From: an uncultured Planctomycetia bacterium
Lineage (GTDB): Bacteria > Omnitrophota > Gorgyraeia > 2-02-FULL-51-18
Assembly (NCBI GenBank): GCA_964606485.1
Contig: CAZSGP010000001.1
Span: forward strand, 33,085 to 97,084
DNA: 64,000 nt
Direction: 5' to 3'
Every line of letters begins with the position of its first letter. The stretch's first letter is position 1. The notes beneath the pieces were generated by a model, which saw only the letters and a list, made by a program, of their open reading frames with translations, searched no databases and had not been told where the DNA came from. This document shows, in pieces, positions 4,133 through 59,347 of the stretch. The position numbers were made by a program, and so were the translations under genes.

Positions 4133-5064
4133 TCGCAACGATTACGCTTAATCCTTCAATAGATCAGTACCTGGTTGTGCCCGACTTGCACAAAGACGAC
4201 ACCAATCGCGCGAGCTCCGTCGTGAATTTTGCCGGCGGAAAAGGCGCCAATGTTTCGAAAGTCGTGCGCGAACTGGGTGGCCTCACTCACGCTTACGCGC
4301 TGCTCGGAGGTTTTGTGGGTGAATTTTGGAAGCAGTTGATCGTCTCGCTCGACATTCCATTTACGGCGTCGTGCGTCAAAGGCGAAACGCGCATCAACAC
4401 CATTCTGACAGATGTGAAAGATAAAACACAGACGCGCGTGAGTGCGCCGGGACCACACGTCACTCAAAAAGAAATCCAAATTTTTTTAAAAAGCCTTTTA
4501 AGCATCAAAAGAAAACCGTTTGCCTGGGCGCTCGGAGGAAGTCTTGCCAAAGGAATGCCGGAAGATACGTACCGGAATTTTGTGGCGCATCTTCAGAAAC
4601 AGGGCGTTTATAGCGTGCTCGACACCGACGGCCCCGCACTTAAAATCGGACTGAAGGCCAAGCCGTTTATGATCAAGCCCAATGAACATGAACTTGAACG
4701 CCTCATGGGTCATTCATTTAAAAATACAAGCCAGTATCTAAAGGCTGGTCGTGCGCTCGTCGAGAGCGGCGTTTCCATCGCGGTGATTTCGCTCGCCGCA
4801 AAGGGCGCTTTGTTTATTACGAAGCACAAAGCGTTTCACGTGTCGACGCCAAAGGTTGAAGTTAAAAGTAAGGTAGGGGCGGGCGATTCATTGATCGGCG
4901 GCTTCCTTCTTGGCCTCTCCCGAAACAAATCTCTCGAAGAATCCGCCCGGCTCGGGGTCGCCGCTTCCACTAGTGCCGTGATGCGCGAAGCGCCACGGCT
5001 TTGTGTCAAAGCAGACATCCCCAAACTCCTCTCCAAAATAAAGATCAGCTCGTTTCCAGCCTGA
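4129..5064 (+). CDS. PfkB-family carbohydrate kinase (1-phosphofructokinase / tagatose-6-P kinase-like)
   Basis: N-terminus MIATITLNPSIDQ, GGKGANVS, and the C-terminal VGAGDSLIGG anion hole typical of the FruK/PfkB ribokinase superfamily. Confidence 0.82.
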   Translation: MIATITLNPSIDQYLVVPDLHKDDTNRASSVVNFAGGKGANVSKVVRELGGLTHAYALLGGFVGEFWKQLIVSLDIPFTASCVKGETRINTILTDVKDKTQTRVSAPGPHVTQKEIQIFLKSLLSIKRKPFAWALGGSLAKGMPEDTYRNFVAHLQKQGVYSVLDTDGPALKIGLKAKPFMIKPNEHELERLMGHSFKNTSQYLKAGRALVESGVSIAVISLAAKGALFITKHKAFHVSTPKVEVKSKVGAGDSLIGGFLLGLSRNKSLEESARLGVAASTSAVMREAPRLCVKADIPKLLSKIKISSFPA

Positions 5065-31058: not shown

Positions 31059-31549
31059 CAGCTTTTATCTCCCGAGATCACGAGCGCTCCGATAATGGCG
31101 ATGAGAAGCACAACTGAAACCGCTTCAAAGGGAAGAACGGCCTGAGTCATCAACGCGTGACCCACCGTTTTAAGCGAGTAGTCGCCTTCTGTAGAAGTTT
31201 GAGCAAAGCGTGTAGAGCTAATGACTTTCCAAATTCCAAGACCAAGCGCCACGGCTGCCATCACAGAGCGCGCCACTTTTTCTTTGGAGCGAGGCTCGCT
31301 TTCTTTTTGCATGGTTTGAGAGAGCATGATTGCAAAAATAATGGCAATGGAAATTGCGCCGATATAAATAATCACTTCAATCACTGCTAAAAATTCACTG
31401 TTTAAGAAAATGAATATTCCCGCCACACAGAAGAGACAAAGAATCAGCGAGAGCGCGTTGTAGAAAACATTCTTTAGTGCCACGGCTAAAATGGCCGCCG
31501 TGATCATGACCACACAAAGACCGGTGAAAATCCCGTTTGCCAGCATCAT
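31058..31549 (-). CDS. nuoJ: NADH-quinone oxidoreductase subunit J
   Basis: 163 aa. Supported by operon order. Confidence 0.88.
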   Translation of the reverse strand: MMLANGIFTGLCVVMITAAILAVALKNVFYNALSLILCLFCVAGIFIFLNSEFLAVIEVIIYIGAISIAIIFAIMLSQTMQKESEPRSKEKVARSVMAAVALGLGIWKVISSTRFAQTSTEGDYSLKTVGHALMTQAVLPFEAVSVVLLIAIIGALVISGDKS

Positions 31550-44935: not shown

Positions 44936-47900
44936 ATGCCCATATTTAACAAACATTTTAAATTTAAAAAAATTAGTTTCTTGAGAGCTATTTCTTTAGC
45001 TTTGTTAATGGCCTTTATAGGTCAAGATCTTCTCTGGGCTAGTCCTGATCTCAAATTTGAACACCCCACTCAAAATCTCAAATGGGCCAAAAGTATTCTC
45101 CCTAGTCTTCCCGAAACTGTCGTAAAACTAGAAGATGCCTGGAAGGCCTGCCTGCCGGTAGGCAAGGGGCCGGACCCCTCTGGCACCGTGATTCTTATTC
45201 AAGACGCTCACACGAATCCTTCAGGGCAGATGAATTTGGCCAAGACGTTGGATCTTGTCTTATCTAGTCGGCGGGACCTGTCAGCGACTCATATCTTCCT
45301 CGAAGCGGGAACCGGCGACGACTCTCTGTCGTATCTAAGAAAGAACGGCTCTCTCAAAGATCGTCAACAGATCGCCATGAAATATTTAAAAAAAGGCGAA
45401 CTTCATGGAGAGGAATATTTAGATCTTACTTCGAATCACAACATTACGCTCTGGGGCGTTGAAGACAAAGTACTTTACTTAAAAGCACTTCGAGACTACA
45501 AAGTCGTTGCATCCCAAAGAAGCAAGTTTCAAAACACTCTCGATAAAATCAAAGTCACGACTCAAGTTTTAAAACCTAGAATCTTAAACCCACTGCTCTT
45601 GTCTCTTGAAGACAGTCGCCAGAAATTTCAAAAAGGGGAGCTCTCCTTTACGGAATATGCAGATTTTCTTTTGACGCTTCAAAAATCAGTAGAAAGCTCC
45701 CATACTTATTCTCATCTTACGAAGCTCGGCAAATTCAAGGGTTTGGAGCAAAAACTCGCGGCTCGGAAAGTGTCGGCCCGCCATCAAAAAGCGATTGTAA
45801 GCCGGCTTCTTAAAGCGTCCAAGGCGCTAGATTACGCACAGGTGCTGAGCGAGCAAAAAGCGCTCGAGCTTGAACTCTTTCAGGCGCTTATCCAAAACGA
45901 AGAGGAGCGGCGATTCATTGATTGCATTAAACTCCAGGAGTTTTACCGGAAACTTTTTAATTTCTCGCTGACACCGGAGGAATACAAAGAATTTAAAAGT
46001 TTGAACTTAAATATTCAATCGCTGACTGGCTTTCTCAACCGTCAAATTATGTCTCTAGGAAGTTACTACGAGAACGCTTTATTTCTTGAGCCGGGGTTTG
46101 ATGAAGTGATTCAAAAGGCTGAAGACTTCTATGGGTTGACACTCAAGCGCGATGAGAAATTTGTTGAGAATATGCTGAGTCAAAGCGAGAAGCAGCGGGT
46201 GGCGGCGGTAGGTGTCCGTCTCGAAAACACCGAAGGTGGCTTTCGAACGGACAACCGCCAGGCAGCCTGCCTGCCGGCAGGCAGGGACCCGCTGCGGACG
46301 GCCGCCGTTCTGATTACAGGTGGTTACCACACTCCCAATCTCAAAAACATTCTGAAATCCAAAAATATTTCCTACATTTCCCTGATTCCCCAGGTGACTC
46401 AAGAAACCAATCAGAAACGATACGAAAAAATTCTCTTTGGTCAAAATCTTCAAGAGAGCCATTTTCCCAAAATTCAAGGAGCGGTTCCAAGTTCTATGAT
46501 GACGGCCCCTCAGGCTGAGGTTGCGGGGAGTCGGTTGGTGGGGGAAATCGCGGCGCTACCTCGCAATTCCACCCCGGAGGTGGTGATAGGTTGCCAAAAA
46601 GTTAGTTTTGGCGCCCGCCTAGCAATCATCGTCATGCCACATTTGTCGGTTCCGCTAGCGATGAGTAAGCGGGCTTTCGGAGTTGCATCCAGTTTTCTGG
46701 GACACGAAAAAGCGGTGATTGAGGATTATTCGCTGAAGGTTGCGAAAGAGCTGAAGGAAGACGGTTTTAATTTTCACAAAAAAGAATACAAGAACATGCT
46801 TTTCCGGTGTCTCGAAGTGTTATTTGCGCCCGCTTTTTTGGAGAACACCCAACAGAAACTGATTTTGATCGGCAAAATGGAGGATTTTCTTAAAGAATTT
46901 AAAATGATTCTCGGTAATTTCAGACCGGCAAAAAATGAGGAGATGTCGGATTTTTCGGTGGTGGACATCGGCTGGTATTTTCTGGTTCGACTTTTAACCA
47001 TTCAAAGTATGAAAGTGCAGTGGACTCCGCATGATCAGATGGCTGCTCATGATGATTTGCTTAGGCGAGCGATTGCAACGGTGTTGAGAGACGCCAAGGC
47101 CTTGCAGTCCGATGCCAGGTTATTTTTCGAAATCAATAAGGAATTTGCGCTTCGCGCCGAGAAAATGATGAGGGCAGTTGGAAGTCTTTCGTTGTCTCAG
47201 GATTTTCGCACTCGTTTTTTTCATGCGCTTGAATGGTTTGTGAGCTACGTCGAAAATCCCTCTGCGGATTTTGAGGATGACGCCGTTACGGTTAAGGAAT
47301 TAGTTTCTTTTGAGCCGGTGGGCAAGTCGATTGCTAAAGAAGCCGCTGAAAATCGGATCACCGAAGATTTGCTAAATCGACTGCGACTCGTGTTTGCTCC
47401 GGTGGAAAGCCCGGAAGAAGAAATTTGGCACGAACCGCTGGATTACTTTGCAAGTTTGCTGAATCCCGAAAAAATAAGAGTGATGCAACTGTCTCCGGCT
47501 ATGGGTTTTCAAGATCAACCCGTCGATGGTGACACTAGCGGTTTATCGAGAACATTTCTTTTTCAAATTAGGTGGTTTGAGGCGCTAACTCAGAAAAACC
47601 ACAGCTATAACCGGTGGATTGTGCCGGACATGGACGCTTATCTTGAACCACTAATTGCGGAGCTAAGTTCCGACCCGAGTGCCATTGACCGGTGTCTCAG
47701 CAAGCTTCCGGATTATTTCTCAAGCGCCGGACCGTCCCCCGAGCGTATGACCTTGCGCGAGTATTTGGGATTAGACAGCGTCATCTTAAGTGACCGCGCC
47801 CGCATGTCTCTTCTTTTTTTTCAGGAATTAAAAAAAGCGTCAATTCGACAGAATGCCAGCGTATTTTTACTACGCGAGCATGATTTAACTCTGGGTTCCA

Positions 47901-50900
47901 CTGTGGTGAGACACGGAGCTCACAAGAAACGAACCAATCATTTGGAAGGCCTACTTAAAACAGGGCCGGTTTTAGTGCTAGGCTCTTTTGTTTTTGATGT
48001 GGAAACGACGGACGATTGGTTTGGGCTTTGTGTAGGAGACAAACAAATTGTTCGAATCAATCAGGAAAAATCAGATTATGTGGGAGGTTCTACGGCCTAT
48101 CACTTAATGGACGCTGTTGTTTTTACCGTTACGCAACTCGCGGAGAGCTTTAGTTGGGGAGCGGGTTCTTTGAAAACATCGGGCGTTTACATCAAGGATT
48201 CCGAAGGACTTAACCCTAAGCTCAGAGAATTTTTAGAACACGTGAAAAAGGAGCACGAAGGACAGCTTCAGGCTGGGTTGGCCGCTGATTTGAAGCAGCA
48301 GGCCTTGGGTAAAATTCATTATGTTGTTGTTACTAGAGTGACCGACGGGGAACGGGCACCGATTGAAAGGAGTCCGGAGAATAAGCGGACTCCGGCCGGA
48401 TCGTTGAGCGGCGCCCGCCTTGCGGCGTCACCGAAGTTTTGGCGCATAAAAAAATCGGTAGGGGGTTCGAGTGCGACGACAATCGGGGATCTCAAAATGA
48501 GCGCAATTCAAATTGCGGGCGAAATTGTCGACGCCGTGCATGGGCAAGTGCAAAAAGATAAATCTGCCGTGATGAGTGCTGAGAAGATGAAAAATCTGCT
48601 CTCGGGAATTATTGATAACGCTCTCGACGCCATTCAAGATGGTTTTCCTTCTCACAAATACGAAGGCGCGGAAATAGAGATCGAAGCCATTATTGGACAC
48701 GGCCGGCTTATCTTAAAAGTCAGTGATAATGGCGCGCCTTTTAGCAATGAAGCGATGGCGAATGCGGGTCGGCGAAGGTTTACCACTAAAGATCCTGATT
48801 TTGAAGGCAAGATTTATTATGGCGGTAACGGTATTTTTCTTAAGCGCACGTCTGAGCAAGTCAGGGGTTTGGGTGGAAAAATGTCGATTAGAAATTTTGC
48901 CGATCGCCAAGGCTCATGTGTGTCATTTAACCTGCCTTTCGAAGTTCCGTTGGGCGCGCGACTCGCCAGCACCCGTGATTTTAATCAAATGAGTGCGCAG
49001 GAAGTGCGAGCGACTTTGAAGGATCTTAAAGATTCCAAAGAAATAAAGGCCAAATCCATTTCAAAGGAATGGCAGGCTTTTCGAGCGTTCGGGAAGAGAC
49101 GCGTTGCGGGTGTTGTGGTGGTTCGTAAGATTGGCGGACGTTGGAGCTTTTTGATGGCCCGGCGAACCAATCACGGGGACAATGCGGGGCTCTTTACATT
49201 TCCCGCTGGAAAAAAAGAGAGGGGCGAGCCCGTTAAAAAGGCAGCTTCGAGAGAGCTTTCCGAAGAAGGTAAGATTTCGGTAAATTCCAACCGGTTGAAA
49301 ATTATGTTGGATGAATTTTACGGGTATAAACGGGAAATTCTTTTAAATTACTACGTTTTCGTCGACGCATCTGAAGAAAGTGAGATTGCGCCAACAAAGG
49401 AGCTCGACCATTTTACATGGGTTCCTCTGGATGAAATTATTTTGTCGAAACCTGGCGAATCCGCAAAAGCGGTCACGGCGTGGCTTGCGCTCAAAAATAC
49501 AGATTTAGCCAACATTGAAATTATCAGCGGAATTAATCCTAACGGACTCGAAAGCCTCCGAAATGTTTTTGCCAAAGTTTATGAACGCATCGAATCGAAG
49601 GAAAGTGCTGCGGCGCGGCTCGCCCAAGAAAGCCCCAATCCATTTTTTACAAAATCTGAATTTGAAGAAGCATGCCGAGCGTTAAAAGGTGTGGTGGTGA
49701 GAACGCCGTTGAGACGCTTAGAGCGAATGAGTAAGGCCGCCGGAAAACCGGTTTTCCTCAAGAACGAAGCCGAGCAAATCGGGGAAGCGTTTAAAATTAG
49801 AGGTGTTTACTACCAGGTTTATTGCGCGGTCCGCGAAGCAATCCAAGATGGGTTTAATTTTCTGGAAAATTTCTTAATTATTTTCACGCAGTCTACCGGC
49901 AACCACGGAATTGCCATGATTTTATCGGTGGCAAAAATCGTTAATTCGTTTGGGCAAAATAAAATCCTGCCAATTGTTTTTACATTCAAAGAGCTTCCGC
50001 CGGTGAAACGTTTTTTTATGGAGAAGGCGCTCGGCGAATACCGCAAGGCGAGCGGCAACCCCACTGCCGGAAAAATTGTGGACGAGGTGGATGGAAAACA
50101 GTTTGAGCATTACTCGGAAATGGTCCGGCACCGGAATTTATTTAAAGAAGAAAACGCCGCTGTGGCGCGCTACATGTCGCACGCGGACCCGAATATCATG
50201 CTTGGTCACGGCTCGGCGGGAATTGAAATTCATGAGCAATTAAACGAGGCGGGAATAGGGCCGAATAAAAAAGTGACACTCATTCTTCCGATTGGCGCGG
50301 GCGGGCCGCTCGGAATTGCCGCGGCACTTAAGCTTTCAAGGTCAAACGTAACGGTTGTAATGGTTCAGTGTCCGGATTTTGACGCATTTGTGCGAACGCT
50401 TCGGAGCGGAAAAACCCAGACCAACCCTAAGAAGGATCCCAAAGCTTATCTCCTCAACGGAAAGACAGTTTTTTTAAGAACGCTTGCGGACGGCATTGCA
50501 GTGGACGGCCCCGAAAATGAGCGCGCCGTTGAGATTGCACGCGAGTTTGTCGATCTCTCAGTTGTGGTAGATGACGCCCACGCAGTGGATAACGCCGGTG
50601 TCACGGTGTACCGCGATTTGCAAAAAAGTTTTGAAGAGACTCGGAAGCCGGTCGAAAGCGTGCGCGTGGGTGGGACCGCGGCGATTGCGGCACAAGCGAT
50701 TATCAATTTTAAAAATCGTCCCGAAATAAAAAATGCCGACGCAATTGTGGTGCTCGGAACCGAAGGAAATGTGATTGAAGAACTCACTGAGCATTTAGCG
50801 GGGCAGTCGATTCGGTATAGAGACGATGAACTATCAGTTGCGCTTATTCGGCAGGTTGATGAAAAGCCGTTAACCGTCGAGCAGGTATTCAGTTTACCAG

Positions 50901-53221
50901 CGTTTAAAAAATACCCTGGACTTGATGTTGAAGATATCGAAAAGCTAATTCTTTTGGCAAACCGGAACCTTGAAAGGGATCGGGAGAATTTTAGAATTGG
51001 ACTTCGAAATGAAAAAAAAGCGTATCTTTTTAAAATCCGGCTAATGCAAGGCGGGCGCGGATTTTCTACGGCGGGCGCGCGGCTGGCCAAACGCAAGGAC
51101 CCCAAAAATCCCAGACTCAAGTCCTGGACCGCTTCTTCCGAGCTCAACAAAGCGGTGAACGGTCCAATCCGAATCATCGGCCAATCTTTTGGTTTTCCGG
51201 AGACGCCGGAGGAAATGGATGCGTACCGGAGCATTGTCACAGCTTTCAAGACGCATAGCGGTAATAAACCAATTGATGTGACGGTTGAATTCATGGGGTA
51301 TCTCATAGCCAGCTACCTTTTTGGTTACGGAGATTCCCAAAAAACGCTCGAACTGTTGGAAGGCTTGAGAGACAAGCCCAGAGAGCTTCGCGCTGAAATG
51401 TTTAAAGGCGACTTTTTGCCGATGATGGTCGCCGTTGCAACATTGATGCAGGCTGGAAGCGTTCGTCGGCTGATTGAAGAGGGCAAGGGTCCATTTTATT
51501 TATTCGACGAAACTTTTTTTGATGAGGGCGTTAATGAGCGCTGTATAAATTTAAGTGTGGCATTTTGGCCCACAGCCTTAAAGACACTTTACGAAAGTAT
51601 CCAATTTTTGGAGTTTACCGGAAATTTTAAAAAAGCCATCGATGTCTTAGATAATTTTATGCTAGTTATTTCATACATCAAAAGTATCGATTCAGCGTTT
51701 TCGGAAGACGAGCTTTTAGAATGGCGCCAGCGTTTAACAGAAGCGATGCAAACGGTCGAGCAGGCTAGGGCGAATAAATCGGCCGGCGCGCGGCTTGCCC
51801 ACCCCTCGCAAAAAAAAGAAAGGGTTCAGAAAGCATACAGAGGCGTTCTGAAGAGGGCTATTTTGGTGTCATCGCAACTAAAACTGCTGATGCGAACTCA
51901 CAATGAAGTGCGTGACGATCACTTTCGTCGCGACGAAGCCATGCGTGTTTTGCACGACACGCGCCGGGCTCTTTTTTCGAAATCCGATTTGATAAAAGCG
52001 GTCGCTATAGATGACCGGGCGGGATCCGAATCTTGGCTGCCCGAAGAACGCGCCGCATGTATCTGGACACTGTATTTTTTAAGTTCTTCCTTAGATAGTT
52101 GGGTGGGGCAGAGATATTTCAGCGATTACTCAACCGATGAGGAGGAACATAGTCTTCGATTTGACCGTTTAAATTGGCACGAAATTCGTCCTCTGCTTAA
52201 ACAATTGCGAAGAAACCCAAACGAAAGTCCGCTCGTTAAAAGGGCGATCCGCAATGTCTTCCGCCGCGCTCAAGGCTCGAGGCTCGTCAAAGATACTGTT
52301 TATAATTTCAGTCTCCGCGTTTTCGATGCAACCCGGCAGTCGGGCGTTCTGGCCCTCAGTTTAGGTGAGGCGACCGACGTGTTGCTGGTTAATTTTCAGT
52401 TTGACGAAGCTCAAAACATACTTCACCTGACTTATAATGACGGGACCATTTCCGTGAAAAATCCAAAAGCGATTCCACATTCCGACCGTTCGAATTTAAG
52501 CGCGTCTCTCAAAGGATTTGAAATTCCGGAAAAGGAATTGGCGGATTTGCCCGAGGTTTCAGCCCAATTCCAGAAAGCCGCGAATGCATTTAAGTCATTG
52601 CCGGCCGATTTTTTCACGCAGACTTCTAAAATAATCCGCTTGAGAGCGAGCTCATTTATTCGTAACAACTCTCCTCACAAAAAGGAATGGATCCGCTGGT
52701 TTTTGGCGTCGATTGCGGATTTTAAAAAATACGGAGCCACTGTGGTTTTAGAAGAAGACGAAGTTTCCGCGGAGATTATTTCTGCTGCGGGATCGGACGT
52801 GCCTCTTTTTGAATTAAAAAAAGGGGAGAAGCTGCCGTTTGAATCCAAAAATATTTCTCGCATTGAAATCCTTAATCCAAAATCAACCGGATCGTATAAC
52901 GACAAAACATCGACTTATCTATTTGGAATGGAAGCCGGTGGAGCCGGACTGCAAAATATTTCACTTCTCCTGCATCTAGCACTCATCGAAGCCGAGGTGG
53001 GTGTTGAAAATATGCAAGCCGGAAATAAAAAATTTGAAGTGTATCAAAGAGTTTACGAATCGATTCACGGAGCGATTTCAGATCCCGAAGGTTTTGTGGA
53101 GTTTAGCTTAGGAACAGTTATTTTAGGAGCAGCTCAGCATTTTGGGCTTGCAGCTCTTCGTGTCGAGTCGCTGATTCGGGCGACAGCTCTCGGCGCGCGC
53201 ATGGCGCTGCAGGCCGCTTAA
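44936..53221 (+). CDS. giant (2761 aa) exported multidomain protein with embedded GHKL-ATPase-like, Nudix and PLP fold-type-II domains, punctuated by a recurring GAR[LM]A motif
   Basis: N-terminal signal-like segment (KHFKFKKISFLRAISLALLMAFIGQDLLWA). Residues about 1175-1335 carry N/G1/G2-like boxes (IIDNALDAI, VSDNGAPF, YYGGNGIFL). The Nudix box AGKKERGEPVKKAASRELSEEGKI lies near nt 49207-49272. The PLP domain has VVRTPL ... FKIRG ... STGNHG ... PIGAGGPLGIAAA ... ADGIAVD across nt about 49690-50760. The remainder is mostly helical. Confidence 0.85.
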   Translation: MPIFNKHFKFKKISFLRAISLALLMAFIGQDLLWASPDLKFEHPTQNLKWAKSILPSLPETVVKLEDAWKACLPVGKGPDPSGTVILIQDAHTNPSGQMNLAKTLDLVLSSRRDLSATHIFLEAGTGDDSLSYLRKNGSLKDRQQIAMKYLKKGELHGEEYLDLTSNHNITLWGVEDKVLYLKALRDYKVVASQRSKFQNTLDKIKVTTQVLKPRILNPLLLSLEDSRQKFQKGELSFTEYADFLLTLQKSVESSHTYSHLTKLGKFKGLEQKLAARKVSARHQKAIVSRLLKASKALDYAQVLSEQKALELELFQALIQNEEERRFIDCIKLQEFYRKLFNFSLTPEEYKEFKSLNLNIQSLTGFLNRQIMSLGSYYENALFLEPGFDEVIQKAEDFYGLTLKRDEKFVENMLSQSEKQRVAAVGVRLENTEGGFRTDNRQAACLPAGRDPLRTAAVLITGGYHTPNLKNILKSKNISYISLIPQVTQETNQKRYEKILFGQNLQESHFPKIQGAVPSSMMTAPQAEVAGSRLVGEIAALPRNSTPEVVIGCQKVSFGARLAIIVMPHLSVPLAMSKRAFGVASSFLGHEKAVIEDYSLKVAKELKEDGFNFHKKEYKNMLFRCLEVLFAPAFLENTQQKLILIGKMEDFLKEFKMILGNFRPAKNEEMSDFSVVDIGWYFLVRLLTIQSMKVQWTPHDQMAAHDDLLRRAIATVLRDAKALQSDARLFFEINKEFALRAEKMMRAVGSLSLSQDFRTRFFHALEWFVSYVENPSADFEDDAVTVKELVSFEPVGKSIAKEAAENRITEDLLNRLRLVFAPVESPEEEIWHEPLDYFASLLNPEKIRVMQLSPAMGFQDQPVDGDTSGLSRTFLFQIRWFEALTQKNHSYNRWIVPDMDAYLEPLIAELSSDPSAIDRCLSKLPDYFSSAGPSPERMTLREYLGLDSVILSDRARMSLLFFQELKKASIRQNASVFLLREHDLTLGSTVVRHGAHKKRTNHLEGLLKTGPVLVLGSFVFDVETTDDWFGLCVGDKQIVRINQEKSDYVGGSTAYHLMDAVVFTVTQLAESFSWGAGSLKTSGVYIKDSEGLNPKLREFLEHVKKEHEGQLQAGLAADLKQQALGKIHYVVVTRVTDGERAPIERSPENKRTPAGSLSGARLAASPKFWRIKKSVGGSSATTIGDLKMSAIQIAGEIVDAVHGQVQKDKSAVMSAEKMKNLLSGIIDNALDAIQDGFPSHKYEGAEIEIEAIIGHGRLILKVSDNGAPFSNEAMANAGRRRFTTKDPDFEGKIYYGGNGIFLKRTSEQVRGLGGKMSIRNFADRQGSCVSFNLPFEVPLGARLASTRDFNQMSAQEVRATLKDLKDSKEIKAKSISKEWQAFRAFGKRRVAGVVVVRKIGGRWSFLMARRTNHGDNAGLFTFPAGKKERGEPVKKAASRELSEEGKISVNSNRLKIMLDEFYGYKREILLNYYVFVDASEESEIAPTKELDHFTWVPLDEIILSKPGESAKAVTAWLALKNTDLANIEIISGINPNGLESLRNVFAKVYERIESKESAAARLAQESPNPFFTKSEFEEACRALKGVVVRTPLRRLERMSKAAGKPVFLKNEAEQIGEAFKIRGVYYQVYCAVREAIQDGFNFLENFLIIFTQSTGNHGIAMILSVAKIVNSFGQNKILPIVFTFKELPPVKRFFMEKALGEYRKASGNPTAGKIVDEVDGKQFEHYSEMVRHRNLFKEENAAVARYMSHADPNIMLGHGSAGIEIHEQLNEAGIGPNKKVTLILPIGAGGPLGIAAALKLSRSNVTVVMVQCPDFDAFVRTLRSGKTQTNPKKDPKAYLLNGKTVFLRTLADGIAVDGPENERAVEIAREFVDLSVVVDDAHAVDNAGVTVYRDLQKSFEETRKPVESVRVGGTAAIAAQAIINFKNRPEIKNADAIVVLGTEGNVIEELTEHLAGQSIRYRDDELSVALIRQVDEKPLTVEQVFSLPAFKKYPGLDVEDIEKLILLANRNLERDRENFRIGLRNEKKAYLFKIRLMQGGRGFSTAGARLAKRKDPKNPRLKSWTASSELNKAVNGPIRIIGQSFGFPETPEEMDAYRSIVTAFKTHSGNKPIDVTVEFMGYLIASYLFGYGDSQKTLELLEGLRDKPRELRAEMFKGDFLPMMVAVATLMQAGSVRRLIEEGKGPFYLFDETFFDEGVNERCINLSVAFWPTALKTLYESIQFLEFTGNFKKAIDVLDNFMLVISYIKSIDSAFSEDELLEWRQRLTEAMQTVEQARANKSAGARLAHPSQKKERVQKAYRGVLKRAILVSSQLKLLMRTHNEVRDDHFRRDEAMRVLHDTRRALFSKSDLIKAVAIDDRAGSESWLPEERAACIWTLYFLSSSLDSWVGQRYFSDYSTDEEEHSLRFDRLNWHEIRPLLKQLRRNPNESPLVKRAIRNVFRRAQGSRLVKDTVYNFSLRVFDATRQSGVLALSLGEATDVLLVNFQFDEAQNILHLTYNDGTISVKNPKAIPHSDRSNLSASLKGFEIPEKELADLPEVSAQFQKAANAFKSLPADFFTQTSKIIRLRASSFIRNNSPHKKEWIRWFLASIADFKKYGATVVLEEDEVSAEIISAAGSDVPLFELKKGEKLPFESKNISRIEILNPKSTGSYNDKTSTYLFGMEAGGAGLQNISLLLHLALIEAEVGVENMQAGNKKFEVYQRVYESIHGAISDPEGFVEFSLGTVILGAAQHFGLAALRVESLIRATALGARMALQAA

Positions 53222-53635: not shown

Positions 53636-54100
53636 ATGAAAATTGTCGATTTCTTAAACGATAAGGCGATTGTCGCCGACCTCAAGTCTTCTAATAAAGA
53701 AGACATTCTGCGAGAGCTTGTCGATATTCTCGCGAAGGCTGAAGGGATTCGTAATAAAGAAGAGCTCGTCAAGACGCTCTTAGCGCGTGAGGCGCTGGGC
53801 TCGACCGGCATCGGTCAAGGCGTGGGTATTCCGCATGGTAAAACTAACTCCGTTAAAAAATTAGTCGCAGCTTTCGGACTGTGCCGTCAAGGTGTAAACT
53901 TCGAAGCGTTGGACGGCGAGCCGGTTTATATTTTCTTTTTGCTCGTCGCCCCCGAAGATTCTGCCGGACCGCATTTAAAGGGACTCGCCCGGATTTCCCG
54001 TTTGCTCAAAGATAAATTTTTCAGAGAATCCCTCAAAAGCCTCACCGACGAGAAGATGATCTACAAGCTTCTCAAAGACGAAGACTCCAAAAAGCCGTGA
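53636..54100 (+). CDS. ptsN: PTS IIA-Ntr-type nitrogen regulatory protein
   Basis: PTS_EIIA_2 fold with the conserved His (GIGQGVGIPHGK). Length is 154 aa. Confidence 0.88.
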   Translation: MKIVDFLNDKAIVADLKSSNKEDILRELVDILAKAEGIRNKEELVKTLLAREALGSTGIGQGVGIPHGKTNSVKKLVAAFGLCRQGVNFEALDGEPVYIFFLLVAPEDSAGPHLKGLARISRLLKDKFFRESLKSLTDEKMIYKLLKDEDSKKP

Positions 54101-54156
54101 AACCCGGGGGAAAGCTTTCCGCGCCCCTCTACCAGAAGACGATAAGGTAAAAATCA

Positions 54157-55425
54157 ATGGGTCTTTTTAAATGGCTTTACCCAGGCATGCGCGTCAAGCG
54201 GTGGATCGTGCTGTGCTCTTTGGGAATTATCTTATCTTCGATGGGCTTTGTCCTTACGATTATTGAAGATCAGAAAACGAGCGGCAGTCTCGTGGTGCTC
54301 CTGGGTGTTGGGCTTGTAGCGATGAGCATCCGCAAAATTATTAAATCCGTTGTCACCGTTTTATTGCCTCAGCGCGAAAATGAACTCGTTAACATTATGT
54401 ATCAGAAGCGGTATCTCGAGCGCGGGCCGAAAGTCGTGGCCATTGGCGGCGGCTCCGGACTCTCCGTTTTACTCCACGGTTTAAAAGAGTTTACTTCCAA
54501 CATCACGGCTGTTGTGACGGTGGCTGACGACGGCGGATCTTCCGGGCGGCTGCGCAGTCAATTTAATATCCCGCCTCCGGGAGACATTCGCAACTGCTTG
54601 GTTGCGCTGGCTGACTCCGAAGCGCTGATGTCCGAACTTTTTCAATTTCGCTTCGAAGAATCGGGCGCGTTCGAAGGTCATAATTTTGGAAATCTTTTTA
54701 TTTTAGCGATGCTCAAGGTCACCGGAGGTGATTTTGAAAAAGCCATTCGCGAATCCAGTAAAGTTTTGGCGATTCGCGGACGCGTGGTGCCCTCTACTTT
54801 AAAGAGAGTGACGTTGACGGCTGAGCACAAAGACGGAACGCGCACCGAGGGCGAGAGCAATATCGGAAAAGCCAAAAGCCCAATTGAGAGACTTTATTTA
54901 AAACCGGAAGGGTGTGCCGCAGCGCAAGACGCGATTACCGCCATTGAGCAAGCAGACGTGGTGGTGATTGGCCCCGGAAGTTTGTACACGAGCATACTGC
55001 CTAATTTACTCATTGATGATTTGAGTGCCGCCCTTGCGCGTTCGGGCGCCCCAAAAGTTTATGTGTGCAATATCATGACTCAAGCCCACGAAACCGATAA
55101 TTTAACCGCTTTCGATCACGTAAATGCGATTATTGAACACACGCGTCCCGATGTTTTAAGCCACGTGCTCGTCAACACCGGCACGATTCCGCCCAGCATT
55201 CTCAAAAAGTACGCTACCGAAGAAGCATTTCCAGTGACGGCGGATGTGGACCGCATTAAAAGTCTAGGTTACGAGGTGATTGCCACGAACATTGCGCTTT
55301 CAGCAAACATGGTTCGTCATAACTCAAGACGCGTTGCGAGAATTGTGGTGGAACTCGTTCAGACGCTTAAGAAAAAGCAGGTTGAGGAAAAAAAGAGGCC
55401 AAGACCCTCGTATGCCCGCCGGTAA
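54157..55425 (+). CDS. YvcK/UPF0052 (CofD-like) gluconeogenesis-factor family protein with N-terminal two-TM extension
   Basis: VVAIGGGSGLSVLLHGLK and the downstream conserved YvcK core. The first roughly 75 aa are predicted to be membrane-embedded (LCSLGIILSSMGFVLTII ... LVVLLGVGLVAMSI). Confidence 0.85.
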   Translation: MGLFKWLYPGMRVKRWIVLCSLGIILSSMGFVLTIIEDQKTSGSLVVLLGVGLVAMSIRKIIKSVVTVLLPQRENELVNIMYQKRYLERGPKVVAIGGGSGLSVLLHGLKEFTSNITAVVTVADDGGSSGRLRSQFNIPPPGDIRNCLVALADSEALMSELFQFRFEESGAFEGHNFGNLFILAMLKVTGGDFEKAIRESSKVLAIRGRVVPSTLKRVTLTAEHKDGTRTEGESNIGKAKSPIERLYLKPEGCAAAQDAITAIEQADVVVIGPGSLYTSILPNLLIDDLSAALARSGAPKVYVCNIMTQAHETDNLTAFDHVNAIIEHTRPDVLSHVLVNTGTIPPSILKKYATEEAFPVTADVDRIKSLGYEVIATNIALSANMVRHNSRRVARIVVELVQTLKKKQVEEKKRPRPSYARR

Positions 55426-57322
55426 AAAGAAAAATTTCATTTTTTGTGTTCACGCTCACCAGCCCGTCGGAAATTTCGGCTCTGTTTTTGAAGAGGCTTA
55501 CGAACGCTCCTATCGTCCATTTTTTGAAGTCGTTTCAGCGCACCCTGCCGTAAAAGTTTCCGCTCATTTTTCGGGAAGCCTGTTGGATTGGCTTGCCGAA
55601 CATCACCCGGAATTTATTTCAAAGCTCAAGTCCATGGCTCAAAGCGGCCAAATTGAATTTTTGGGCGGCGCTTATTACGAGGCGATTTATGGCATGATTC
55701 CGGCTAAGGATTTAAAAGGACAGATTCTGAAGATGCGCGCGAAGTTGCGCGAGTTTTTTGGCGTAGAGTTTGAAGGGGTCTGGCTCACCGAGCGCGTGTG
55801 GGATGCCCAGCTGCCAGCGCTTTTAAAATCAGCGAAGGTAAATTTTACAATTCTCGATGATCTGCACTTTGAAAATAGCGGGGTTCAGGCGCCGGTGACT
55901 GGTTTTTACAAAGCGGGGACCGGGAAAAACTCGCTTGATCTTTTTGCGTCGATGAAAGATCTACGCTATCTTATGCCGTTTCAGAAGGCCGAGAAAACGC
56001 TCGAATTTTTTCACGCGGCGACAGCTCAAGAAAATGATGTTTGGGTTTTTGCCGATGATTGTGAGAAGTTCGGTATGTGGCCCGGAACCTACGACTGGGT
56101 GTACGGCCAAAAGTGGCTCGACCAATTTTTTACGCTGATTGAAAATGATGAGCAGATTCAGATGTGTCATTTTTCGGAAGTCCGAAAATCCTGCAAATCC
56201 AAAGGCACTCTGAGCATTAAACACGCCAGTTACACTGAAATGATGGAGTGGTCGGGAGGGCGTTTCTACAATTTTTTTGAAAAGTACGCGGAGAGCGGGT
56301 ACATGCGCGACCGTATGGAATCGGTGAGTCGCCGCGCCCAGCGCTCAAAGGAAGCACTTAATTTTCTCTATAAAGCGCAGTGCAACTGCTCGTACTGGCA
56401 CGGCGTATTCGGAGGGCTTTACTTGCATCACCTGCGTTCGGCGGTATTTGAAAATCTCATCGCTGCCGACAAAATTTTGGAAAAAAAGCCGCTCGCGTCC
56501 AAAGAAAAACTTGGGGCCGAGACGCATTATAAAATCCGTCAGAACGAGATCGTTTCTTATTTGAACGCAGGCTTAGGCGGCGCGCTCGAGGAGATTGATT
56601 ATCTTCCAAAGACGGTGAATCTGATGTGCAATTTAATGCGCCGTAAGGAAATTTATCACGAGGTGGCGCATTCTAAAAAAGCCAAAGAGGGGTCCGATGA
56701 GCCGCTCTCGATTCATGACATGCTTGGCTCTAAAGAGAAAGATCTGGATAAGCACCTTTTTTATGACCCCTATCGTCGCTTTTCTTTTTTGGATCACTTT
56801 TTTGGCTCGACTATCTCAAATGAAGAATTTTTGAGGGCAAGCTACATTGAAACCGGTGATTTTGCCGGAAAGCCGTTTCGAGCGAAGCAGGTGCGGGTGA
56901 CGGGTAGGTCGGGTTGGGTGCTTGAGCGAAAGGCGGGAGCGCTGTTGGTGCAAAAGACCTTCTTGCCTTTAAAGGCCAATACGCTCGAAGTTCGCTACCG
57001 GATTAAAAATGTTTCAAAGAAAACATTTTCGGCGGTTTGGGGAACGGAGTTTAATTTTTCGATCGGTGATCCCTACGCGAATCAGGGTGTGAGGGTGGAG
57101 GGAGTCCGGGAGTGGGTGTTTAAAGATTCCTGGAGAAATCTTGAGATTTCACTCACGACTGACCGGGAAAGCACCTTCTTGACCGCGCCTATTGAAACCG
57201 TTTCAGAGTCAGAATCGGGGCTTGAGCGCACATTTCAGGAGCTCGGGGCCTTGGTTCAAGTGCCACTCCGGCTTGAGCCGGGAGCCTTGCACGAACAAAT
57301 CTTTAAACTGGCGATCAATTAA
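55412..57322 (+). CDS. glycoside hydrolase family 57 protein (alpha-glucan-acting enzyme)
   Basis: N-terminal CVHAHQPVGNF and WLTERVWD are typical of GH57. The start is chosen at the internal MPAGKKK (55412); the ORF-track start at 55280 lies wholly inside yvcK. Confidence 0.82.
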   Translation: MPAGKKKNFIFCVHAHQPVGNFGSVFEEAYERSYRPFFEVVSAHPAVKVSAHFSGSLLDWLAEHHPEFISKLKSMAQSGQIEFLGGAYYEAIYGMIPAKDLKGQILKMRAKLREFFGVEFEGVWLTERVWDAQLPALLKSAKVNFTILDDLHFENSGVQAPVTGFYKAGTGKNSLDLFASMKDLRYLMPFQKAEKTLEFFHAATAQENDVWVFADDCEKFGMWPGTYDWVYGQKWLDQFFTLIENDEQIQMCHFSEVRKSCKSKGTLSIKHASYTEMMEWSGGRFYNFFEKYAESGYMRDRMESVSRRAQRSKEALNFLYKAQCNCSYWHGVFGGLYLHHLRSAVFENLIAADKILEKKPLASKEKLGAETHYKIRQNEIVSYLNAGLGGALEEIDYLPKTVNLMCNLMRRKEIYHEVAHSKKAKEGSDEPLSIHDMLGSKEKDLDKHLFYDPYRRFSFLDHFFGSTISNEEFLRASYIETGDFAGKPFRAKQVRVTGRSGWVLERKAGALLVQKTFLPLKANTLEVRYRIKNVSKKTFSAVWGTEFNFSIGDPYANQGVRVEGVREWVFKDSWRNLEISLTTDRESTFLTAPIETVSESESGLERTFQELGALVQVPLRLEPGALHEQIFKLAIN

Positions 57323-57327
57323 GCTTT

Positions 57328-57609
57328 ATGTTTATTAAAAAGAAGATTAAAATCAAGAACCCGCAGGGCCTGCACGCAAGGCCGGCTTCGGTATTTGTGA
57401 AGATTGCCAACAAATACGAGTCGGACATTAGTGTCAAAAAAGGCTCAGAAAAAGTAAGCGGGAAGTCCATTATGGGTCTTTTGATGCTGGCCGCAAGCCA
57501 AGGCAGCACGATTGAGATTGAAGTCAGCGGGTCGGACGCTATTTTAGCCATGAAAGAATTAGAGGAGTTTTTGTTAAACGATTCCGATGAAAAGCCAAAA
57601 GTCAGTTAA
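57328..57609 (+). CDS. ptsH: phosphocarrier protein HPr
   Basis: Active-site GLHARPAS (His15). Length is 93 aa. Confidence 0.92.
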   Translation: MFIKKKIKIKNPQGLHARPASVFVKIANKYESDISVKKGSEKVSGKSIMGLLMLAASQGSTIEIEVSGSDAILAMKELEEFLLNDSDEKPKVS

Positions 57610-59347
57610 ACTTAAAGGAATTGCCGCGTCGCCTGGCATTGCTGTCGGGAAAGCGTTTTTGCTCGATTCCGAAGAGCTCTCGATCCCGCGCCGTAGCATC
57701 AAAGAATCCGAAATTCCCAAAGAGATCACGCGCTTTGAAGATGCTCTTACGCGTACACGCGCGGAAATTCTTAACATCCGCGACAAGATCACCGATGAAA
57801 TCGGCAAAGATCACGGCGATATTTTTAATGCCCACCTTTTAGTCATTGAAGACCGCGCGCTTATTGAGGAAGTGATTGAGCGCGTTAAAAAAGAAAAACT
57901 CACCTGCGATTACGTATTGTCGCAAGTTCTTAAAAAATACATCCAATCCTTTTTAAAAATTGACGACGAATACCTACGCGAGCGCGTCAGCGATATTAAC
58001 GACGTTGGCCGGCGCATCATTCGCCACCTCGTCGGAGGACGTAAAACATCTTTGGCGGACATTAAAGAAAAAGTAATTGTGGTGGCGTATGACCTGTCAC
58101 CCAGCGACACCGCCGTGATGCACCGCAAGAACGTGATCGGCTTTGTGACGGATATCGGTGGACGCACTTCTCACACCGCCATCATGGCGAAATCTTTAGA
58201 AATTCCGGCCGTGGTGGGTATTGAAGTCGCGACACATCGCATTAAGGAAGGCGATACGATTATTGTCGACGGCGCTCAAGGCGTGGCCATTGTAAATCCG
58301 ACCGCCGCAGATCTTGCCAAATACAAAACCGACAAAGCCCGTTACGTGGAGTTTAATCGCGGCCTAAAGAAAATGAAGGACCTGGCTTGCGTGACGTCGG
58401 ATGGCCGGCGCATCGAACTTGCGGCCAATATCGAACTTCCAGAAGAAACCACGTCGGTGCTAGCGCATGGCGCCAATGGCATCGGGCTTTACCGCAGCGA
58501 ATTTTTGTACATGAACCGTTCCGGTCTTCCCAAGGAAGAGGAGCAGTTTGAGGCCTATAAAAAAGTGGTCAAAGAAATGGCGCCCAAGCCTGTCATTATC
58601 CGCACCTTTGATTTGGGCGGCGATAAATTCTTATCACATTTAGAAATGCCGCACGAAATGAATCCGTTTTTAGGCTGGAGAGCGATCCGGTTTTGTCTCG
58701 CGCGCCCTGAAATTTTCAAAGTTCAGCTCAGAGCCATTTTAAGAGCGAGCGCTTTCGGAAAGCTGCGCATGATGTACCCGATGATTTCGGGGATTACCGA
58801 GCTGCAGCAAGCCAATAAATTACTCGCGGAAGCCAAGCAGGAACTGCGCGCTAAAAAAATGTCCTTCGACGACAAGATTGAAGTCGGGGCGATGATTGAA
58901 ATCCCTTCTGCTGCACTCACCTGTGACATCCTGGCGCGGGAAGTGGATTTTTTCAGTATCGGCACAAACGATCTTATTCAATACGCGCTGGCGGTGGACC
59001 GTATCAACGAAAAAATTGCCTATCTGTACGAACCGGCGCATCCTGCGGTTTTGCGTCTCATTAAAATGATTATCGAAACGGGACACGCTAAAAATATCTG
59101 GGTCGGGATGTGCGGCGAGATGGCAGGGGACCGGCTTTTAACGCCGCTTCTTGTGGGTTTGGGTTTGGATGAGATTTCTGTATCGCCCTTGCTTTTGCCG
59201 GAAGTTAAAAAGATTATCCGCTCGCTTAATTTTAAAGAATGCCGCCAGATGGTCGACGAAGCGCTTAAGCTGAGTTCCGGCGAAGAAGTGATGGAATTTT
59301 TAAAATCCCAATCGCTCAAGCTCATTCGAAAAACGGCTGCTTCCTAA
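57587..59347 (+). CDS. ptsI: phosphoenolpyruvate-protein phosphotransferase (PTS Enzyme I)
   Basis: Phosphohistidine domain (GGRTSHTAIMA) and the PEP-utilising domain. Length is 586 aa. Confidence 0.93.
   Translation: MKSQKSVKLKGIAASPGIAVGKAFLLDSEELSIPRRSIKESEIPKEITRFEDALTRTRAEILNIRDKITDEIGKDHGDIFNAHLLVIEDRALIEEVIERVKKEKLTCDYVLSQVLKKYIQSFLKIDDEYLRERVSDINDVGRRIIRHLVGGRKTSLADIKEKVIVVAYDLSPSDTAVMHRKNVIGFVTDIGGRTSHTAIMAKSLEIPAVVGIEVATHRIKEGDTIIVDGAQGVAIVNPTAADLAKYKTDKARYVEFNRGLKKMKDLACVTSDGRRIELAANIELPEETTSVLAHGANGIGLYRSEFLYMNRSGLPKEEEQFEAYKKVVKEMAPKPVIIRTFDLGGDKFLSHLEMPHEMNPFLGWRAIRFCLARPEIFKVQLRAILRASAFGKLRMMYPMISGITELQQANKLLAEAKQELRAKKMSFDDKIEVGAMIEIPSAALTCDILAREVDFFSIGTNDLIQYALAVDRINEKIAYLYEPAHPAVLRLIKMIIETGHAKNIWVGMCGEMAGDRLLTPLLVGLGLDEISVSPLLLPEVKKIIRSLNFKECRQMVDEALKLSSGEEVMEFLKSQSLKLIRKTAAS

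Follow-up and report, generated by a model that had tools for sequence, protein, structure and literature searches.

What kind of protein joins an ATPase domain, a Nudix hydrolase and a pyridoxal 5'-phosphate (PLP) enzyme in one exported chain of almost three thousand residues? The question is raised by a giant gene in a 64,000-nucleotide stretch of DNA, here called the window, from contig CAZSGP010000001.1 of GenBank assembly GCA_964606485.1 (positions 33,085 to 97,084, forward strand), recorded as an uncultured Planctomycetia bacterium and placed in the Omnitrophota by GTDB. As the first-pass annotation had stated, the gene is a single uninterrupted open reading frame (ORF) on the plus strand, 44936..53221, which starts with ATG, encodes 2761 aa and has no internal stop. 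That annotation took the trio of enzyme domains as the defining feature of the protein and could place it in no family. We now find, with high confidence, that the protein is a member of a very large family, mostly from Omnitrophota, which consists of a conserved head domain, cargo modules separated by a pentapeptide motif, and a HAD-like tail. The HATPase/Nudix/PALP trio is one arbitrary cargo combination and is incidental to the family, as no homologue has the same cargo and the relatives carry different enzymes. We suggest, with a probability of roughly 40%, that the protein is an exported polyprotein or effector array that would be cut at the pentapeptide by its own TIKI-like domain.

The three enzyme domains themselves are real. 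Scans of the whole protein with Pfam and NCBIfam, reported down to E up to 1, gave only three Pfam matches, HATPase_c at aa 1216–1336 (E 3.3e-7), NUDIX at aa 1387–1510 (E 1.2e-13, 51.7 bits vs a cut-off of 21) and PALP at aa 1587–1940 (E 1.8e-29, 103 bits vs a cut-off of 35), and the motifs that had been quoted for them are all present. The GHKL boxes are the N box IIDNALDAI (1225–1233), G1 VSDNGAPF (1262–1269) and G2 GGNGIFL (1296–1302), so the Gly boxes of the ATP lid are in the sequence. The Nudix box, GKKERGEPVKKAASRELSEEGKI, aligns at 1425–1447 with MutT-like structures and keeps the REx2EE glutamates of the consensus GX5EX7REUXEEXGU, with the last G replaced by K. The PLP part contains FKIRG (1619–1623), STGNHG (1653–1658), PIGAGGPLG (1785–1793) and ADGIAVD (1851–1857); the lysine of FKIRG and the glycine loop PIGAGGPLG align with rat serine dehydratase and TdcB, and thus both the Schiff-base Lys and the Gly-rich phosphate loop of the fold-type-II PLP enzymes are present. 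The only part matched by PADLOC was the Nudix module (aa 1402–1501, about 49139–49438), which hit the candidate defence family PDC-S07 (E 3.8e-10), probably through the resemblance that Nudix proteins have in general.

The nearest NCBIfam models for the PLP part are threonine/serine dehydratases, but the scores are well under every equivalog cut-off, and an IlvA/TdcB orthologue was rejected on the best of them, 54 bits vs the IlvA cut-off of 379. The closest relatives are stand-alone proteins of about 465 aa annotated as 'PLP-dependent lyase/thiolase', with 40% identity. In one of these, of 469 aa, residues 35–435 are 40% identical to residues 8–391 of the 483-aa PLP module, and because this match runs almost from end to end, one module corresponds to one whole protein. 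The HATPase_c module is 176 aa long and is bounded by the motif on both sides. A sensor histidine kinase was rejected, since Pfam finds no HisKA, H-box or receiver domain and the protein has just one N-terminal hydrophobic segment. Thus, of the earlier suggestion of an effector, a sensor or a polyprotein, the sensor falls away, while a multi-enzyme effector or a polyprotein is favoured by the family evidence. About 985 aa, in modules 564–1158, 2052–2283 and 2289–2446, have no domain assignment, and for the first of these a homologue search of 5.8 billion proteins found none.

The same search with the whole protein returned 155 matches of 1.5–4.75 kaa (thousand amino acids), of which the named ones are almost all 'Candidatus Omnitrophota/Omnitrophica'. 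These homologues have only query aa 1 to about 530 in common, and query 640–2440 is common to none of them. When 1.84 billion cluster representatives (50% identity) were searched with a profile of the N-terminal domain, 9,555 matched at E up to 1e-3, and 6,375 of these also passed a limit of 1e-30; the query itself has E 3e-176. The domain is N-terminal in every profile match, the matching proteins are up to 7,416 aa long, and the members encountered span about 1.5–7.4 kaa. At the other end, an iterated profile from the last 330 residues found a domain of about 300 aa at the exact C-terminus of at least 63 homologues, which the query matches at aa 2458–2761 with E 1e-56. Neither end domain had a match in Pfam, NCBIfam, PADLOC or PDB-sequence searches. 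The description of the rest of the protein as a helical scaffold was only partly right, since conserved mixed alpha/beta domains form the first 506 residues of the protein and the last 310.

Homologues in metagenome bins, which the first-pass annotation had proposed to look for, are thus plentiful, and the species-representative genomes added 146 family matches, from which 77 loci (L001–L077) were retained. Most of these loci carry Omnitrophota/Omnitrophica or 'uncultured Planctomycetia' in their titles, and three carry other phylum names. The Planctomycetia title stands on many family records (L001, L003, L004, L021, L025, L055 and others), and there are single Eisenbacteria, Auribacterota and Saccharibacteria titles; the records with titles outside the Omnitrophota are probably mislabelled or contaminated Omnitrophota bins. 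Several metagenome-assembled genomes have 4–5 or more paralogues on different contigs, some of them in tandem. Tandem arrangement of family genes is frequent, and in five loci (L014, L041, L046, L050 and L067) the probable tandem partner is a large motif-bearing upstream ORF that is cut off at the locus edge. The only recurrent neighbours of the family genes are further family members and a protein of about 830 aa (12 loci), which we take from its sequence to be a membrane sensor.

The protein begins with a Sec-type signal peptide, as had been proposed. By its pattern, it has a K-rich n-region, a 12-residue h-region and a c-region ending ..QDLLWA/SPD (the slash marks the predicted cut), and it is modelled as a helix over residues 9–35. 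Among 67 family signal peptides, 65 have Ala at position −1, and 49 have either Ala or Ser at position −3. The Kyte-Doolittle mean exceeds 1.4 in only three stretches of the query, namely the signal peptide, residues 549–577 around the first site, and one stretch within the PLP domain. The signal peptide is also conserved in sequence across the 67 members, ..FLxQ[DE]xx[FWY]A/[AN]P[DE]. Sec signals are not usually conserved in this way, and a dedicated step of targeting or processing may lie behind it. The tail domain has no invariant residue, and the DxD-like 'IDLDGL' is kept in only some members; an active HAD phosphatase was rejected on these grounds. At the extreme C-terminus of 136 family proteins, an amphipathic helix (..R[ML]A.[RK][MAQ][VAI].Q[AS]A; ..QAA in the query, 53192–53218) closes with [AS]-A-COOH in nearly every case. 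This suggests a partner that recognizes the C-terminus, for example a factor for secretion or sorting, or a C-terminal processing peptidase of the PDZ type.

What is carried between the conserved ends? The Pfam domains of the homologues include phosphoglucomutase, PGI, PGK, aldolase, PEPCK and adenylate kinase, and also sigma-70, SecA-like and DnaJ domains, protein kinases, methyltransferases and HEAT repeats. Even paralogues whose head domains share 50% identity have entirely different cargo. It could be imagined that such a protein stays in the producer's cytoplasm, tethered to the inner membrane by its N-terminal segment, as a housekeeping polyprotein whose cargo, cut or uncut, serves the cell's own metabolism. 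The family cargo, mostly central-carbon and sugar enzymes and regulators, is what one would expect of such a protein, and nearly half of the giants of at least 10 kaa read as cytoplasmic-face proteins (bioRxiv 10.64898/2026.06.07.730766). However, the short h-region and the A-x-A-like cut site are those of a cleavable signal peptide, and the positive charges on its N-terminal side would put the remainder of the protein outside. Furthermore, the cargo is distant from the canonical orthologues, as the PLP module illustrates, and its total turnover between such close paralogues is hard to reconcile with housekeeping. We consider this explanation improbable.

A further conserved element of the family is a short peptide. 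In the query, GARLA is found at residues 559, 1159, 1340, 2047 and 2284, GARMA at 2753, AARLA at 1559 and GSRLV at 531 and 2447, which makes seven strict [GA][AS]R[LM][AST] sites and two GSRLV variants, all nine in frame. A six-frame translation of the window shows the exact GAR[LM]A six times in the giant ORF (nucleotide starts 46610, 48410, 48953, 51074, 51785 and 53192) and elsewhere only at 508 and at 31286, the latter on the strand opposite to the listed ORFs. In 120 family proteins, GAR[LM][AS] was seen 449 times vs 2.9 expected from composition, an enrichment of about 150-fold. AARLA, with 90 occurrences, is 43-fold enriched, and enrichment is also seen for S at position 2 and, separately, for V at position 5. 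Single-substitution counts give [G>A][A>S]-R-[L>M>F][A>S>T>V], where the Arg at position 3 is absolute, F at position 4 is rare, and positions 1, 2 and 5 are small residues; the flanks are unconserved and rich in Ser, Pro and Glu. The 77 loci contain 239 motif sites in 174.5 kaa of family ORFs vs 39 in 288 kaa of other ORFs, and at least 26 of these 39 lie within large ORFs, cut off at the upstream locus end, that resemble tandem family members.

The motif divides the proteins into modules, as the first-pass annotation had proposed for its GAR[LM]A boundaries. The first motif has a median position of 593 across the family, just past the N-terminal domain, and sites lie a median of about 300 aa apart, which matches a protein of ordinary size. 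In the query, the three enzyme domains are separated by the sites at 1159 and 1340 (HATPase), 1340 and 1559 (Nudix), and 1559 and 2047 (PALP). In homologues, sites bracket adenylate kinase (1100, 1468), PEPCK (1468, 2064), sigma-70 regions 2–3 (1576, 2018) and an HTH domain (2244, 2415); a CsrA lies between sites 3997 and 4091, a 94-aa module for a protein of about 60 aa, and an FHA domain ends at 4296 with a site at 4305. In 114 cargo alignments between members (52 kaa), only 18 sites fall inside the alignments vs 107.6 ± 11.4 at random placement, and 38–40% of the alignment ends lie within 60 aa of a site vs 20 ± 4.5% at random. The predicted local distance difference test (pLDDT) score is below 50 at sites 531, 559 and 2447, which are all three of the linker sites covered by the two structure models, and the segments around them are probably disordered.

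The selection is on the peptide and not on the DNA. Two hundred and twenty-three sites are encoded by 152 distinct 15-mers, with every synonymous codon and with both CGN and AGR for Arg, and on this free variation a signal in the DNA itself, for instance a site for recombination or for cassettes, was rejected. The motif codons are nevertheless skewed to GGC-GCG-CGG relative to how these residues are encoded in the remainder of those ORFs (GGC 69% vs 38%, CGG 51% vs 21%), which could come from translational pausing at module borders or from mutational bias.

Is the peptide a cleavage site or a structural element? The protein could be an uncut multi-enzyme scaffold in the periplasm or at the surface, with the pentapeptide as a linker cap or as a docking site for partner or end domains. 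Omnitrophota giants are currently interpreted as membrane-associated or as having surface or 'coat' roles (bioRxiv 10.64898/2026.06.07.730766; PMC10066038), the C-terminal motif copy is within a predicted helix, and the motif is missing from some members. On the other hand, a strict pentapeptide with an absolute Arg, free flanks and low-confidence segments is typical of a recognition or cleavage site rather than of a structural linker. Moreover, CsrA, sigma-70 and HTH regulators would have no obvious use when tethered outside the cytoplasm, and the cargo combinations are essentially random between paralogues, so that no conserved pathway is assembled. A scaffold therefore seems to us rather doubtful, and we favour cleavage at the motif, which we infer because the motif is short and strict and stands in low-confidence segments, because the modules are whole proteins, and because CsrA or sigma cargo would hardly be active while tethered.

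A candidate for the protease is the head domain. In 84 N-terminal domains, Q89, D90, H92, N94, E123, G158, G174, E176, Y181, E271, F398, Y399, R405, D406, G462, G463, H465, P485 and Y496 are invariant, and A91 and Q98 are conserved in 99%. The query carries all of the invariant columns, as QDAH..E..GVE..RD..GG[YF]H, right after the signal peptide. An AlphaFold2 model from the family alignment (pLDDT 80, predicted template modelling score 0.72) has an alpha/beta core with strands 84–90, 118–122, 170–175, 457–462 and 479–485, and a helical insert of about 250 aa. These are about five parallel core strands flanked by helices, as in the TIKI/TraB/Ere/ChaN fold. The best structural match is ChaN, followed by EreC (8.3), two Ere-like 'succinoglycan biosynthesis' proteins (8.2 and 7.9), HopBA1 (8.2) and a TraB family protein (7.7), with PMT (6.8) and the MARTX effector RRSP (6.7) lower; all of these belong to the TIKI superfamily. 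A Foldseek search of the PDB with the whole N-terminal model gave no significant match, which is probably explained by the helical insert that dominates the model. The family profile found no Ere, ChaN or TraB chain among PDB sequences at E up to 10, where only spurious coiled-coil matches appeared, and aa 1–560 had no Pfam or NCBIfam match at E up to 1.

Active members of the TIKI superfamily have a 2His/2Glu set, which is E3900, H3902, E3930 and H4030 in RRSP (PMC6254334), and they include the site-specific endopeptidases TIKI1 and RRSP (PMC6254334; PMC8191133). In the Omnitrophota family, D90-x-H92, E123 (31 residues on) and GG-x-H465 have the order and spacing of the RRSP set, with Asp for the first Glu. 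In the model, each of these four residues is at, or at most 3 residues past, the C-terminal end of a core strand. We propose the head domain as the candidate protease because it is the sole invariant catalytic-looking element that always accompanies the motif, and because its superfamily holds site-specific endopeptidases. The same domain bears on the scaffold from both sides, since its best structural match, ChaN, is a binding protein and not an enzyme, whereas the invariant 2His/2-acid set argues for catalysis.

The sites within one protein resemble each other. Pairs of sites in the same protein are identical in 31.3% of cases vs 19.1 ± 0.7% after shuffling among proteins (z 17), and the co-variation is strongest at the L/M and G/A positions. 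Thus, P0196 has 8 GARMA sites, P0050 has 6 GARMA, P0066 has 6 GTRL[SAT], and P0112 prefers GARVA. Since the sites co-vary although the modules are unrelated, one cognate recognizer per protein or per lineage is suggested. This recognizer may not be the head domain. A polyprotein could be cut in trans, after Arg, by a separate trypsin-like protease of the periplasm or of a host, with the head domain employed otherwise, as an esterase or in ligand binding or attachment to a membrane or host. The absolute Arg suits trypsin-like specificity, neither Ere nor ChaN, to which the head domain is related, is a protease, the head motifs persist even where sites are few, and the co-variation could track a protease particular to a lineage. 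However, across the 77 loci no protease gene is conserved beside the family genes, nothing invariant and catalytic-looking other than the head domain always travels with the motif, and the first site follows directly after this domain. We judge a separate protease to be unlikely.

The mechanism that we propose, with cutting by the head domain, has four steps. The giant protein would first be exported through Sec. The pentapeptides would then be cut, probably beside the Arg-Leu/Met pair, by the N-terminal TIKI-like domain of the same molecule or of a sister molecule. The cargo modules would be released as separate proteins, and these would be used outside the producer's cytoplasm as effectors or accessory factors, possibly in a host or prey cell. 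TIKI1 cleaves the Leu8-Ala9 bond of Wnt3a, and the MARTX protease cleaves behind a Leu where a small residue follows. Scission at GARL/A would fit these precedents, which we take as a lead only. An effector or accessory role is suggested because the cargo is hypervariable and divergent from canonical enzymes, because there are many paralogues, and because cytoplasm-type proteins carry a signal peptide. It is also suggested by the host-dependent or predatory lifestyle proposed for Omnitrophota (PMC10066038).

Several points weigh against this mechanism. Cleavage at the motif is deduced from sequence features and models, export via Sec is read from the signal-peptide pattern, and a destination in another cell is extrapolated purely from the cargo type and the proposed lifestyle. 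The structural scores of the head domain are moderate, and the 2His/2-acid set was judged from the alignment and the strand ends, not from the model coordinates. ChaN is haem-binding and the Ere proteins are esterases, so the head domain could well have a function other than that of a peptidase. The site nearest the C-terminus, GARMA 2753, is inside the predicted helix of the C-terminal domain and not in a linker. The co-variation of sites could equally come from a lineage-specific trans protease or from lineage composition. Finally, 19 of 167 members are nearly without sites, yet they keep the head motifs (GG[YF]H in 19/19, QDAH in 17/19).

The family supplies a candidate cleavage motif, [GA][AS]R[LM][AST], and a candidate built-in protease with residues D90, H92, E123 and H465, and the motif gives a rule by which Omnitrophota giants can be divided into modules when structures are to be predicted or proteins expressed. 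If the processing is real, this would be a large class of cellular polyproteins, and host-dependent bacteria would have a new way to deploy many enzymes and regulators from one gene. A broader version of the idea, that Omnitrophota encode thousands of Sec-exported self-processing polyproteins, with cargo from sigma factors and CsrA to glycolytic and sugar-nucleotide enzymes, as a new effector platform without homology to known ones by which these ultra-small episymbionts or predators place cytoplasm-type enzymes and regulators in or on hosts, we hold to be speculative and, at present, on the unlikely side. No description of the motif and the two end domains was found in the searchable literature, where 'GARLA' matched only author names and nothing appeared on Omnitrophota polyproteins or on autoprocessing Omnitroph effectors.

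Could the giant ORF itself be an artefact? The first-pass annotation had named a chimeric assembly or frameshift-joined genes as what would overturn its description. The source is apparently a metagenome-assembled contig, and we found no point that supports an artefact. The protein has the full family architecture, from signal peptide to terminal ..QAA, as in dozens of independently assembled homologues, the motif is in frame at all nine junctions, and the GC content along the ORF (0.447–0.486) is inside the range of the window. A chimera is very unlikely because the ORF opens with the family N-terminal domain and closes with the family C-terminal domain, like at least 63 homologues from independent assemblies; for artefacts of either kind, we put the chance near zero. 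The parts of the protein and the other ORFs mentioned below are listed in Table 1.

Table 1. Parts of the 2761-aa protein and other ORFs of the window, with positions in the window.
Feature	Residues (aa)	Window positions	Strand	Remarks
Sec-type signal peptide	1–35	44936..45040	+	predicted cut after ..LWA; family pattern
Conserved N-terminal domain	36–506	45041..46453	+	TIKI/TraB/Ere/ChaN-like alpha/beta core with helical insert of about 250 aa (model)
Linker, probably disordered	507–563	46454..46624	+	sites GSRLV (531) and GARLA (559); pLDDT <50 over 507–570
Cargo module M1, orphan	564–1158	46625..48409	+	no Pfam, NCBIfam or PDB match
Motif GARLA	1159–1163	48410..48424	+	pattern match
Cargo module M2, stand-alone GHKL ATPase domain	1164–1339	48425..48952	+	HATPase_c 1216–1336, without HisKA
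Motif GARLA	1340–1344	48953..48967	+	4 aa beyond the end of the HATPase_c match
Cargo module M3, Nudix hydrolase	1345–1558	48968..49609	+	Nudix box 1425–1447
Motif variant AARLA	1559–1563	49610..49624	+	second commonest variant in the family
Cargo module M4, fold-type-II PLP enzyme	1564–2046	49625..51073	+	predicted catalytic Lys in FKIRG (1619–1623)
Motif GARLA	2047–2051	51074..51088	+	pattern match
Cargo module M5	2052–2283	51089..51784	+	no Pfam, NCBIfam or PDB match
Motif GARLA	2284–2288	51785..51799	+	pattern match
Cargo module M6	2289–2446	51800..52273	+	no Pfam, NCBIfam or PDB match
Motif variant GSRLV	2447–2451	52274..52288	+	directly before the C-terminal domain; pLDDT about 35 in its model
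Conserved C-terminal domain	2452–2761	52289..53218	+	small beta-sheet, degenerate HAD-like Rossmannoid, helical bundle (model); ends GARMA-LQAA
Antisense ORF, 286 aa		50446..51306	−	inside the giant gene
Antisense ORF, 132 aa		46079..46477	−	inside the giant gene
PTS EIIA, CofD/YvcK-like gene, GH57 glucanotransferase, PtsI		53636..59347	+	directly downstream of the giant gene
Second giant ORF, 2169 aa		18522..25031	+	N-terminal two-partner secretion domain, C-terminal beta-propeller repeats

The giant gene is in an ordinary chromosomal setting, with a Liv-type ABC transporter upstream. Downstream are genes for two PTS (phosphotransferase system) proteins, an EIIA of the Ntr type and PtsI, with the CofD/YvcK-like and GH57 genes. 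Phosphoenolpyruvate-utilizing and sugar-phosphate enzymes are frequent as family cargo elsewhere, and no tie to these downstream genes is established. A promoter and terminator scan was little informative except for hairpins that resemble terminators, behind the upstream gene and at the stop codon of the giant gene. We assume the two antisense ORFs to be non-coding shadows of the long sense ORF. The second giant ORF, which combines its two-partner secretion (TPS) domain with YncE/WD40-like repeats, lacks the GARLA motif, and there is no TpsB-like partner among the adjacent ORFs scanned.

How does the family compare with known systems? Multi-enzyme giants in Omnitrophota are not new as a general phenomenon. 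Those of at least 10 kaa were catalogued by Nielsen & Lui 2026, with their function left open (bioRxiv 10.64898/2026.06.07.730766). The 'multi-enzyme metabolic clusters' of that work are in the same phylum, join unrelated enzyme Pfams (HATPase, Nudix, methyltransferases, sugar enzymes) and usually have a signal peptide. They are at least 10,000 aa long with many Pfams, whereas our query, of similar architecture, has 2,761 aa and three Pfam families, and the words motif, linker, cleav-, processing and proteoly- are all absent from their text. The accessible part of West-Roberts et al. 2023 describes 'giant' genes of Archaeovorin and dockerin types, some above 85,000 aa, and speculates on cleavage by C39/S8 peptidase domains at cleavage points that it calls unknown. 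We met no mention of a TIKI-like head or a HAD-like tail in the accessible text of either work.

Compared with TIKI, TraB/PrgY, Ere, ChaN and RRSP, the Omnitrophota head has no sequence-level Pfam or PDB match, has Asp for the first Glu, and is distinguished by its helical insert of about 250 aa and by its fusion to a giant cargo array. The polymorphic toxins CdiA, Rhs and MafB resemble the family in a conserved delivery part, a rapidly exchanged payload, paralogues, and a short peptide at the variable border. They differ in having one C-terminal toxin with an adjacent immunity gene, whereas the Omnitrophota proteins have many internal modules, a metabolic or regulatory-looking cargo, and no immunity-like neighbour in the 77 loci. 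Viral polyproteins likewise place complete proteins head to tail in one ORF, with short specific recognition sites between them that co-evolve with a protease from the same ORF. The Omnitrophota family is cellular and chromosomal, by contrast, with a Sec signal and hypervariable cargo, and the neighbourhood of the giant gene, with its transporter and PTS genes, shows no sign of a mobile element or virus.

As a functional analogue, the nearest would be MARTX, in the sense of an analogy and not of membership. The 2761-aa protein has no sequence or fold relationship to MARTX, and neither RTX-type repeats (Pfam) nor a C80 cysteine protease (Pfam, PDB) was found in it. The MARTX ends are glycine-rich RTX repeats and its export signal is a C-terminal type-I signal, whereas the Omnitrophota ends are globular domains and the signal is an N-terminal Sec signal. 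The candidate protease is TIKI-like and N-terminal, the linker is a strict pentapeptide, and autoprocessing is suggested by motif analysis only. The cargo consists of metabolic enzymes and regulators instead of known cytotoxic domains, with many paralogues per genome. What the two share is the plan. MARTX is a giant secreted toxin with conserved ends, a central array of unrelated enzyme effector domains that varies from strain to strain, and a built-in protease that frees the effectors by cutting the unstructured regions between them (PMC6315884), and the Omnitrophota family likewise has conserved ends around a variable array of cargo.

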